The position numbers and the translations under genes were made by a program. Positions 11,350-13,449 of a stretch of 64,000 bases of DNA are shown piece after piece. The notes beneath the pieces are model-generated. The model made no database searches, was not told the origin of the DNA, and saw nothing but the letters and a program-made list of their open reading frames with translations. How positions within the stretch are numbered: the stretch's first letter is position 1; every line of letters starts with the position of its first letter. Source of the DNA: Oligoflexia bacterium (GTDB lineage: Bacteria > Bdellovibrionota > UBA1018). The stretch is from contig CAIUGE010000116.1 in NCBI GenBank assembly GCA_903898645.1, positions 2,965-66,964 of the forward strand. The letters run 5' to 3'.

Positions 11350-13449
11350 ATGAAAAAAATATGTAGAAATAGTCTGATATGCATTGCGCTCCATATAGCC
11401 ATCATCCAAACCCCAACCCAAGCAACCCAACTCACCGACATATCAAATGACATGCTCCTTGAAATCGCGCTTCGCATGGAACCAGAAACGTACACAAATC
11501 TCGCACGCACACGATCTCGCTGGATCATAAATACGCTCCATAGCCAAAAGACAAAAAATATCTGGCATAAAACACATCCTCATTACGCAGAACAATGGTC
11601 AGATGAAATTGACTTTGATGAATACAAAAAAATAGCGGCCCTCTATCTTGATAAAAAAATCAAAATTTCACTTCTTCGTCAGGAAGAACTCCATGAGTTT
11701 ACAAGCAATGAGTACGCGAAGCAATTTTCTCAATTAACACTCGCATGCAAGCCTGACTACAAACTTTCAGCAGGGTCCATTGCCCAACTTGCTCAGTTGC
11801 CAGCACTGAAAGAACTCGTTCTGACGAACTGCTATCTCAACGGGACAGAGAAAGCACTGGCCGAATCTTTTCAAAGACTAACAAGCCTCACGGCACTCAG
11901 CCTTCATAAAAACACGTATAGACCAGAAATAGCGCGCGGATTATATGGCTCTTTTAAATATCTCAAGAACCTCACAACACTCGACCTACGAGATAACAAT
12001 ATCGGCCCAGAAGGCGCCGTCACCTTAGCTACATCCTTAAAAGATCTCACAAATTTCACAACACTCACCCTGCACGATAACCGCATTGGAGTAGCCGGCG
12101 CGCGCATATTAACAGGCGCTTTGATGCATCTTAAAAACCTTACAGCACTTGATCTCAGTCGTAATAATATTGGACTAGAAAGCACGTTCATAGTAGCCGA
12201 TTCTTTACGGTATCTTACAAATCTCACAACACTCACTCTCAATGATACTGGTATCAACTTACAAGGCTTTCACGCATTAGCAGACTCCTTAAAATATCTC
12301 CAGAACCTCACAGCACTCACCCTGAGATCTACTCAAACTGAATCGGAAGGCTCCCGCGCATTAGTTAACTCCTTAAAATATCTCCAAAACCTAACGACGC
12401 TCGATCTGAGTGGTGTTAATATAAAATCAGAAAACGATATTGCTGGCTCCTTAAAAGATCTCAAAAATCTCTCAGTACTTAACCTAAGTGCGACAGAACT
12501 AAAACCAGAAAGCACTATTGCATTAGCTGACTCCTTAAAGGATCTCAAGAACCTCACAGTGCTTAACCTCAGCGCTACGAGACTCAGACCTGCAGGCGCC
12601 ATCGCATTAGCCGACTCCTTCAAACATCTCCAGAAACTCACAACACTCGATTTAAGCGGCATTGTTATTGAACCGGAAAGCGTCATCGCATTAGCCGACT
12701 CCTTAAAATACCTCAAAAACCTCACAGCACTCAACCTGCGCTCTACGAGACTTGAATCAGCAGGCACTCTGACATTAGACAACTCCTTAAAACATCTCCA
12801 GCACATGACAATACTCAACCTCAACCGTTCCTTTATTGAAGGAGAAGGCGCTATTGCATTAGCCGACGCCTTAAAACGTCTCCAAAATCTCACAACACTC
12901 GACCTCAGCTCGAATGAGCTCAAACCAGAAGGCACTCACGCAATAGCTGATGCCCTAAAATATCTCAAGAACCTCACAGCACTCAACCTACGCTCTATCA
13001 GACTTGAATTAGCGGGAGCTCGGACATTAGCCAACTCATTAAAACATCTCCAGCACCTGACAGTACTCAATCTCAACCGTTCCTTTATTGAAGGAGAAGG
13101 TGCTATTGTATTAGCTGATGCCTTAAAACGTCTGCAAAATCTTACAACACTTGACCTCAGCTCGAATGAGCTTAAACCAGAAGGCACTCGTGCAATAGCT
13201 GATGCCCTAAAATATCTCAAGAACCTCACAACACTCGACCTCTGCTCTACCTTGATCGAACCAGAAAGTGCCATCGCATTAGCCAACTCCATCCCTCATC
13301 TCAAAAAACTCACAACACTCGATCTGAGCGGCAATAGACTAGGACCAGAAGGCATCAGTGCACTCACTAACTCTTTTCTTCATCTCAAAAAACTCAAAAA
13401 AATCGATCTGACTGACACCTTAGCCATCGAGGCTGGACCTGCACAGTAA
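11350..13449 (+). CDS. eukaryotic-like F-box domain plus RNI-type leucine-rich repeat protein (about 19 LRR units of ~28 aa)
   Basis: The N-terminal segment LTDISNDMLLEIALRMEPETYTNLARTRSRW is F-box-like. It is followed by repeated LKxLxNLTxLxLxxNxIGxEGAxALAxS units of the ribonuclease-inhibitor type. DNA periodicity is 84 bp. Confidence 0.75.
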   Translation: MKKICRNSLICIALHIAIIQTPTQATQLTDISNDMLLEIALRMEPETYTNLARTRSRWIINTLHSQKTKNIWHKTHPHYAEQWSDEIDFDEYKKIAALYLDKKIKISLLRQEELHEFTSNEYAKQFSQLTLACKPDYKLSAGSIAQLAQLPALKELVLTNCYLNGTEKALAESFQRLTSLTALSLHKNTYRPEIARGLYGSFKYLKNLTTLDLRDNNIGPEGAVTLATSLKDLTNFTTLTLHDNRIGVAGARILTGALMHLKNLTALDLSRNNIGLESTFIVADSLRYLTNLTTLTLNDTGINLQGFHALADSLKYLQNLTALTLRSTQTESEGSRALVNSLKYLQNLTTLDLSGVNIKSENDIAGSLKDLKNLSVLNLSATELKPESTIALADSLKDLKNLTVLNLSATRLRPAGAIALADSFKHLQKLTTLDLSGIVIEPESVIALADSLKYLKNLTALNLRSTRLESAGTLTLDNSLKHLQHMTILNLNRSFIEGEGAIALADALKRLQNLTTLDLSSNELKPEGTHAIADALKYLKNLTALNLRSIRLELAGARTLANSLKHLQHLTVLNLNRSFIEGEGAIVLADALKRLQNLTTLDLSSNELKPEGTRAIADALKYLKNLTTLDLCSTLIEPESAIALANSIPHLKKLTTLDLSGNRLGPEGISALTNSFLHLKKLKKIDLTDTLAIEAGPAQ
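12781..13290 (+). repeat. near-identical 252-bp (3 LRR unit) tandem duplication inside the F-box/LRR gene
   Basis: Segment 12781-13032 and segment 13033-13284 are about 93% identical at DNA level. They encode LKHLQH(M/L)T(I/V)LNLNRSFIEGEGAI... Confidence 0.8.

Follow-up and report, generated by a model that had tools for sequence, protein, structure and literature searches.

How leucine-rich repeat (LRR) arrays gain new units, and whether the additions then stay, is the question raised by a gene at 11350–13449 (+ strand) of a 64,000-nucleotide (nt) stretch of contig CAIUGE010000116.1 (assembly GCA_903898645.1), hereafter the window, from an uncultured Bdellovibrionota bacterium. This gene, for which we use the name LRR gene, contains a tandem repeat with a period of 252 nt that a preliminary description of the DNA had taken to be recent and changeable. 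The reading favoured here, at a probability of about 0.8, is that a block of three LRR units was duplicated once, in place, and has since been fixed and maintained by selection, in a protein for which an exported F-box-like/LRR adaptor serves as our working model.

A block of three LRR units is repeated in tandem

A search with Tandem Repeats Finder returned an array between 12594 and 13251 with a period of 252 nt (2.6 copies, 85% matches, 0 indels, score 915). When the gene was compared with itself at all lags from 1 to 1499 (match +1, mismatch −3), the best segment score, 178, was obtained at lag 252, and every other lag scored 32 or less. The best segment at this lag pairs 12704–12989 with 12956–13241, and 259 of its 286 positions are identical (90.6%). 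Since the repeat unit of the protein is 28 residues, or 84 nt, the 252 nt correspond to 84 codons and exactly three LRR units, and the repeat is in frame.

In the 84-nt register, copy 1 (12728–12979, + strand) is made up of units A (12728–12811), B (12812–12895) and C (12896–12979), and copy 2 (12980–13231, + strand) of units A′ (12980–13063), B′ (13064–13147) and C′ (13148–13231), with homology continuing to 13241. The high-identity segment starts in the 3′ end of unit X, which precedes copy 1 (12704–12727, + strand, ending in ...LKYLKNLT); this stretch is homologous to the corresponding end of unit C. Copy 2 is followed by unit Y. The corresponding units of the two copies are 86% (A/A′, 12728/12980), 92% (B/B′, 12812/13064) and 94% (C/C′, 12896/13148) identical, against a mean of 64.8% for the 52 other in-register pairs of units (standard deviation 4.9, maximum 77%).

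The in-frame tandem duplication of three LRR units that the preliminary description had recognized is real and far above chance, and the off-diagonal 252-bp line on which it had staked the claim is present. The boundaries, however, have to be moved: the copies had been placed at 12781–13032 and 13033–13284, whereas the true block lies about 50–77 nt further left, which leaves about 43 nt of the supposed second copy (13242–13284) outside the duplication. The accompanying identity of about 93% holds for the 68-residue stretch that was quoted (189/204, or 92.6%, for 12781–12984 versus 13033–13236), but falls to 217/252 (86.1%) when the two 252-nt copies are aligned as they had been placed.

The copies have diverged under purifying selection

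A Nei–Gojobori count over the 84 codons of the block yielded 13.5 synonymous and 10.5 non-synonymous differences between copy 1 and copy 2, corresponding to a proportion of synonymous differences (pS) of 0.214 (synonymous divergence dS 0.25), a proportion of non-synonymous differences (pN) of 0.056 and a dN/dS ratio of 0.23. Other pairs of units have a mean pS of 0.51. Synonymous sites are therefore also conserved between the copies (pS 0.21 versus 0.51), and the similarity reflects common descent, not convergence on an LRR consensus.

Both copies are kept under purifying selection, and the open reading frame (ORF) is intact through both. Constraint differs among the units: it is strong on B (dN/dS 0.04) and on C (0.20), whereas A, with a ratio of 0.55, evolves in a relaxed or diversifying manner. 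Each unit opens with five residues (LNLRS, LNLNR and LDLSS) that are predicted to form the β-strand and are the same in both copies; the amino-acid changes between the copies lie at loop and helix positions.

The three-unit duplication is the newest expansion visible in the array. It is nevertheless far older than the sampled population, since the DNA of the copies now differs by 9.4%, with synonymous sites contributing most of the changes, compared with 0.04% between the two strains that could be aligned (the window and the contig L085 described below). With a dS of about 0.25, a dN/dS of 0.23 and a copy divergence far in excess of that between strains, the description of the duplication as recent or young was not borne out.

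The 27 differences between the copies are unevenly distributed among substitution types, with 12 pairing a C of copy 1 with a T of copy 2 and 0 the reverse (two-sided sign test, about 5e-4; 12704–13241). Outgroup units mostly carry C at the sites that differ in this way, and copy 2 seems to have gained C-to-T changes in one direction.

Gene length is the same in three assemblies

Other assemblies of the LRR gene were reached through its neighbours, the genes for a DUF4442 protein and for NrdB. One contig (L085; ENA ERZ18665086, 4,970 nt) aligns to 11236–16205 of the window with 0 gaps and 2 mismatches. A second, the 7.25-kb contig of ERZ1426645, for which the gene table was used, carries nrdB, a gene for 665 amino acids (aa) and the DUF4442 gene, with spacings of 293 and 58 nt that equal those of the window. 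The window, L085 and the ERZ1426645 contig hence agree on the length of the LRR gene, which in all three is called as 665 aa from Met35 with the same spacing to the neighbours. Exact look-ups in a public protein collection gave no record of the protein, whether as 699 aa, as 665 aa or as the allele of L085, and a whole-protein search for related loci in genome contigs and metagenome contigs returned none.

Over the 4,970 nt, the window and L085 differ at just two sites, which lie 27 nt apart on the + strand in unit A of copy 1, at 12779 (A in the window, C in L085; Asp477 versus Ala) and 12805 (A in the window, C in L085; Met486 versus Leu). Both are non-synonymous, and the positions affected are normally the core Ala and Leu of an LRR. 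At both sites the base of L085 is that of copy 2 and of all five outgroup units. Between them, at 12786, the copies differ as well, and here L085 agrees with the window. A single conversion tract therefore does not explain the pattern; the simpler reading would be two derived C-to-A changes in the strain of the window.

These comparisons bear directly on the proposal that the repeat is an unstable, contingency-like element, the copy number of which, and with it the length of the binding surface, shifts between strains. The copies still have exact runs of 39 and 29 nt in common, and such runs would be enough for rare homologous exchange, the minimal processing segments of RecA being about 25 nt; in addition, both of the sites that distinguish L085 from the window are located in the duplicated block. 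Set against this are the 9.4% divergence of the copies with a dS of about 0.25, the purifying selection acting on both, and the identical gene length in the three assemblies. A contingency repeat would combine near-identical copies with length polymorphism, and here the copies are 90.6% identical (dS about 0.25) and length is uniform among three near-identical strains, a comparison of low power. We consider this proposal quite improbable. The claim that repeat number varies between strains thus found no support, although the agreement of three assemblies from near-identical strains is a weak test, and the repeat, which had also been put forward as a substrate for recombination, is a possible but poor one at 9.4% divergence with exact runs of 39 and 29 nt.

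The same data speak to whether the repeat could have been expanded or mis-joined by an assembler, for which only the general risk that repeats pose in metagenome-assembled genomes (MAGs) can be adduced. The 27 differences that separate the copies over 286 positions follow a pattern that respects codons, and L085, which comes from another sample, reproduces the region without a gap; on these two grounds we reject an assembly artefact as extremely improbable. The concern raised earlier over short-read assembly is likewise low, given that the longest exact run common to the copies is 39 nt and that L085 crosses the region with the same structure, as does the ERZ1426645 contig judging by gene lengths and spacings. 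Taken by its sequence, the duplication appears to be a fixed and selectively kept lengthening of a putative binding scaffold, and not an unstable young repeat.

A probable single in-place event and its alternatives

The arrangement of the units suggests how the block would have arisen. An ancestral series X-A-B-C-Y would have been converted to X-A-B-C-A′-B′-C′-Y by an in-frame duplication of A-B-C in place, either by unequal homologous exchange or by misalignment during replication or repair, between the conserved 3′ ends of X and C, which lie three units apart. X and C end alike, in tails encoding ...LKYLKNLT-ALNL, and the high-identity segment starts in the last 24 nt of X and ends 10 nt into Y; the shared tails account for its beginning inside X and stopping just inside Y, and the 3′ end of X (12704–12727) is the likely site of the exchange. 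Insertions and deletions of protein domain repeats have been attributed to recombinational events, for example unequal crossing-over, not to slippage (PMC5100051). At the protein level the duplication would add three β-strand/helix turns to a solenoid of roughly 19–21 turns. The LRR part of a degraded paralog in the same window (see below) has a 168-nt, two-unit period of its own at 77%, which indicates that block duplication recurs in the family.

An alternative origin is concerted evolution, according to which both three-unit blocks are old, one of them was overwritten wholly or in patches by intragenic gene conversion, and the identity between them dates the last conversion. Recombinational homogenization of domain repeats is known (PMC5100051), and several features of the array would fit it. 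Identity is uneven over the block (86, 92 and 94%), the array reported by Tandem Repeats Finder reaches 2.6 copies, the units at 12560 and 12644, ahead of copy 1, are 69–70% identical to B and C against a background of 65%, and GCTGATGCC in unit B′ agrees with C and C′ but not with B, a hint of micro-conversion. However, in the sole population comparison at hand position 12786 is unchanged in L085 between 12779 and 12805, so that no simple conversion tract is seen there, and a single unequal exchange would be expected to leave just such a clean 252-nt block, bounded by homologous unit tails. Concerted evolution is in our judgement unlikely, if better placed than either instability or an assembly artefact.

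Some observations do weigh against a single in-place duplication. A simple duplication accounts neither for the C-to-T bias between the copies (12 versus 0) nor for the gradient of identity (86, 92 and 94%) across the block. Moreover, the searches brought up no ortholog in any related species, and the X-A-B-C-Y arrangement that would have preceded the duplication is therefore deduced from the present array and not observed.

The gene encodes a ribonuclease inhibitor-type LRR protein with a hydrophobic N-terminus

The coding sequence is complete, running from the ATG at 11350 (not 11351) to a TAA at 13449 on the + strand and translating into 699 aa, as established from the ORF list and its translation. 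Public annotations place the start at Met35 (11452), 34 residues further on, which gives the 665-aa form. A GGAG motif at 11340–11343 lies 6 nt before the ATG at 11350, and no comparable motif precedes 11452. We favour the upstream ATG as the better start, on the strength of this putative Shine–Dalgarno motif and of conservation in relatives. With a start at Met35 the protein would lack a signal-peptide-like segment as well as the beginning of the F-box-like region. The segment in question, a hydrophobic N-terminus read from the translation (MKKICRNSLICIALHIAIIQTPTQA, 11350–11424, + strand), comprises the first 25 residues and looks like a Sec signal peptide; similar hydrophobic N-termini are present in the paralog and in the relative P0121.

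The product matches the Pfam family LRR_6 (PF13516) with E = 1.9e-36 and 121.7 bits, the cut-off being 23.4. The array extends over 11804–13399 (+ strand) and contains 19 recognisable 28-residue units of the ribonuclease inhibitor (RI) type, that is, units of 28–29 residues in which an LxxLxLxxN/CxL core is followed by a helix. One unit, at about 12392–12469, has 26 residues and is 6 nt shorter, which puts the upstream units out of register and explains both this break and a repeat spacing of 330 nt (4 × 84 − 6).

An AlphaFold2 model of residues 1–345 has a mean predicted local distance difference test (pLDDT) score of 80.5, with residues 1–28 below 50. From about residue 100 onwards strands and helices alternate every 27–28 residues, giving the α/β solenoid fold of RI-type LRR proteins. 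Between the N-terminal region and the array lies a linker (11575–11803, + strand) that is conserved in the family alignment and is modelled as cryptic first LRR-like β/α turns, with strands at residues 103–108 and 128–133 (pLDDT 77–91). The top PDB sequence matches of the LRR part are designed RI-like LRRs, LRRC34, RanGAP1 and NLR proteins, and a homology search with the full protein returned only generic RI-type LRR proteins with identities of 31–47%.

Few relatives and a decayed paralog

When 1.84 billion representative proteins were searched exhaustively with residues 1–150 (HMMER), only two relatives came up: P0121, a protein of 735 aa with the same architecture, and P0122, a fragment of 116 aa. 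A profile search for the family added only P0123, which is identical to the first ORF of the paralog mentioned above.

This paralog occupies 46181–47448 on the − strand and was recognized by tblastn at 43% amino-acid identity; it retains a hydrophobic N-terminus, an F-box-like region, the linker and RI-type LRRs. It is degraded by a 1-nt frameshift in an A7 run (47118–47124) and by an in-frame TGA (46820–46822). Both lesions recur in three other public assemblies (L082–L084) and are thus not sequencing errors.

P0121 is encoded at 811–3018 of the contig k141_385344 of ENA ERZ27313567 (L081), which comes from the same sample as L084, a contig near-identical to the window. Its base composition is also rich in A and C (A 0.35, C 0.25, G 0.16, T 0.24). 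P0121 may represent a third family member from the same or a related genome, and the true start probably lies about 92 codons downstream of the annotated one.

A divergent F-box-like region precedes the repeats

The label of F-box gene, which the preliminary description had applied, could be upheld in part only and remains marginal. Residues 28–75 (LTDISNDMLLEIALRMEPETYTNLARTRSRWIINTLHSQKTKNIWHK, 11431–11574, + strand) form a divergent F-box-like helical region, defined by a match of the family consensus and by modelled helices. The consensus of the four family members matches PF00646 with E = 3.3e-4 and 20.9 bits, just above the gathering score of 20.5. Among the relatives, the P0121 fragment matches PF12937 with E = 0.011, P0122 matches PF00646 with E = 0.029, and the paralog gives E = 0.11; the F-box clan comes first among the Pfam matches of the consensus and of the fragments of P0121 and the paralog, and second among those of P0122. 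Two Naegleria F-box/RI-LRR proteins found by homology search score no better (E = 0.0013 and 0.026). In the model, helices at residues 33–42, 45–54 and 57–63 (and 66–75), with a conserved Trp trailing them, fit the F-box pattern, at a pLDDT of only 58–70.

A number of results count against an F-box adaptor. The window protein itself gives no match to the Pfam F-box families (PF00646 and PF12937), neither when searched whole (E ≤ 1) nor as N-terminal fragments (E ≤ 10). The family profile retrieved no F-box protein from the PDB sequences, the best match being an unrelated protein with E = 0.38, and in fold searches FBXL2, FBXL17 and Skp2 rank below LRR proteins that lack an F-box. A Sec-type signal peptide, moreover, is unusual for known F-box effectors.

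On balance we think it somewhat probable that the N-terminal domain is homologous to the F-box. The protein would be exported and would carry this divergent domain directly before the LRRs. As a working model it could act as a eukaryote-like adaptor, the LRR surface binding a target and possibly presenting it to the SCF (Skp1–cullin–F-box) ubiquitin ligase of a host; such hijacking of SCF is a tentative suggestion, drawn from the profile matches, to which we lend distinctly less credence than to the homology.

Neighbouring genes and other features of the window

Upstream, a terminator-like hairpin 3′ of nrdB (11178–11203, + strand) sets the LRR gene apart from the nrdAB operon, and downstream the DUF4442 gene (13507–14022) is convergent with it. 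The organism is represented by metagenome contigs only. NrdA, encoded nearby, reaches no more than 75% identity to its counterparts in Oligoflexia and Bdellovibrionales MAGs, and the LRR gene stands beside nrdAB in none of 80 related nrdA loci (Bdellovibrionota and others). An LRR gene at one of these loci (L027) was rejected as unrelated, with 25% identity. Two minus-strand ORFs within the gene, at 12333–12935 and 12936–13292, were judged to be shadows of the stop-poor repeat, because the plus-strand ORF has the LRR profile matches.

Across the whole 64-kb window, searches for Rfam families and tRNA genes returned none. Over 1–64000 the + strand has a strongly negative GC skew nearly throughout (values of about −0.1 to −0.29 for most intervals of 2 kb) regardless of gene orientation, which points to a strong strand bias in replication, the + strand being the C-rich one. 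Two large ORFs, at 35824–38163 (+ strand, 779 aa) and 60830–62332 (+ strand, 500 aa), have no Pfam family at E ≤ 1e-5, and the 779-aa ORF is also without an NCBIfam match at E ≤ 0.001.

Discussion

Growth of an LRR array by tandem copying of blocks is textbook behaviour, and the case described here, fixed, diverged and stable in the data at hand, is an ordinary one. What it offers is a clean and datable three-unit expansion, in which the units of the copies evolve at different rates, A being relaxed and B and C constrained. The gene is of more interest than its duplication. Judged by its sequence, it possibly encodes a eukaryote-like exported protein that has undergone a routine block duplication.

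A bolder interpretation seems doubtful to us, namely that a lineage of the predatory phylum Bdellovibrionota possesses a very rare family, of which the gene is a member, of exported, eukaryote-like F-box/RI-LRR proteins, and that the duplication, the relaxed unit A, the two strain-specific amino-acid changes within it and the decayed paralog would together reflect birth-and-death evolution of host-targeting adaptors. If it were correct, the lineage would meet eukaryotic cells and their SCF ubiquitin ligases instead of, or besides, bacterial prey. Should the N-terminal domain be a true F-box, for which the profile evidence is marginal, a Sec-exported F-box/LRR protein would point to an unrecognized association with eukaryotes in Bdellovibrionota.

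Among known bacterial effectors, those nearest to the window protein include the GALA/RipG proteins of Ralstonia solanacearum and LegL1 or F-box effectors of Legionella. The GALA proteins have 24-residue LRRs and are delivered by type III secretion without a Sec signal, whereas the units of the window protein have 28 residues, which sets it outside the GALA type, and its N-terminus is Sec-like. The closest described architecture is that of the NEX1a family of Neochlamydia, one of the bacterial families known to combine an F-box, a linker and a variable number of LRRs; the conserved linker is given as about 50 aa (Domman et al.; PMC4209131). The likeness includes the succession of an F-box or F-box-like region, a conserved linker and LRRs in varying number, and also birth-and-death dynamics, here represented by an intact gene and a pseudogene paralog within one 64-kb window. 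The likeness is drawn from architecture. In contrast to NEX1a, the F-box-like region of the window protein itself is below the Pfam threshold, the host is a Bdellovibrionota MAG and not an amoeba-symbiotic member of the Chlamydiae, and the family of the window protein is tiny in public data.

YopM of Yersinia and the internalins of Listeria likewise possess LRR arrays that gain or lose whole units or blocks. In those proteins length variants occur between strains, whereas the LRR gene has no variant among the three assemblies.

In the type of its repeats the protein is closest to the RI-type LRR proteins, such as RNH1, RanGAP1 and the LRR domains of NOD2, NLRC3, NLRC4 and NLRP, which provide its best sequence and fold matches. 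It differs from them in being bacterial, in its hydrophobic N-terminus and other N-terminal domain without a NACHT or RanGAP context, and in an identity of 31–47%; it has in common with them the 28-residue units, the LRR_6 profile and the alternation of strand and helix. RI itself is thought to have grown through the duplication of multi-unit blocks.

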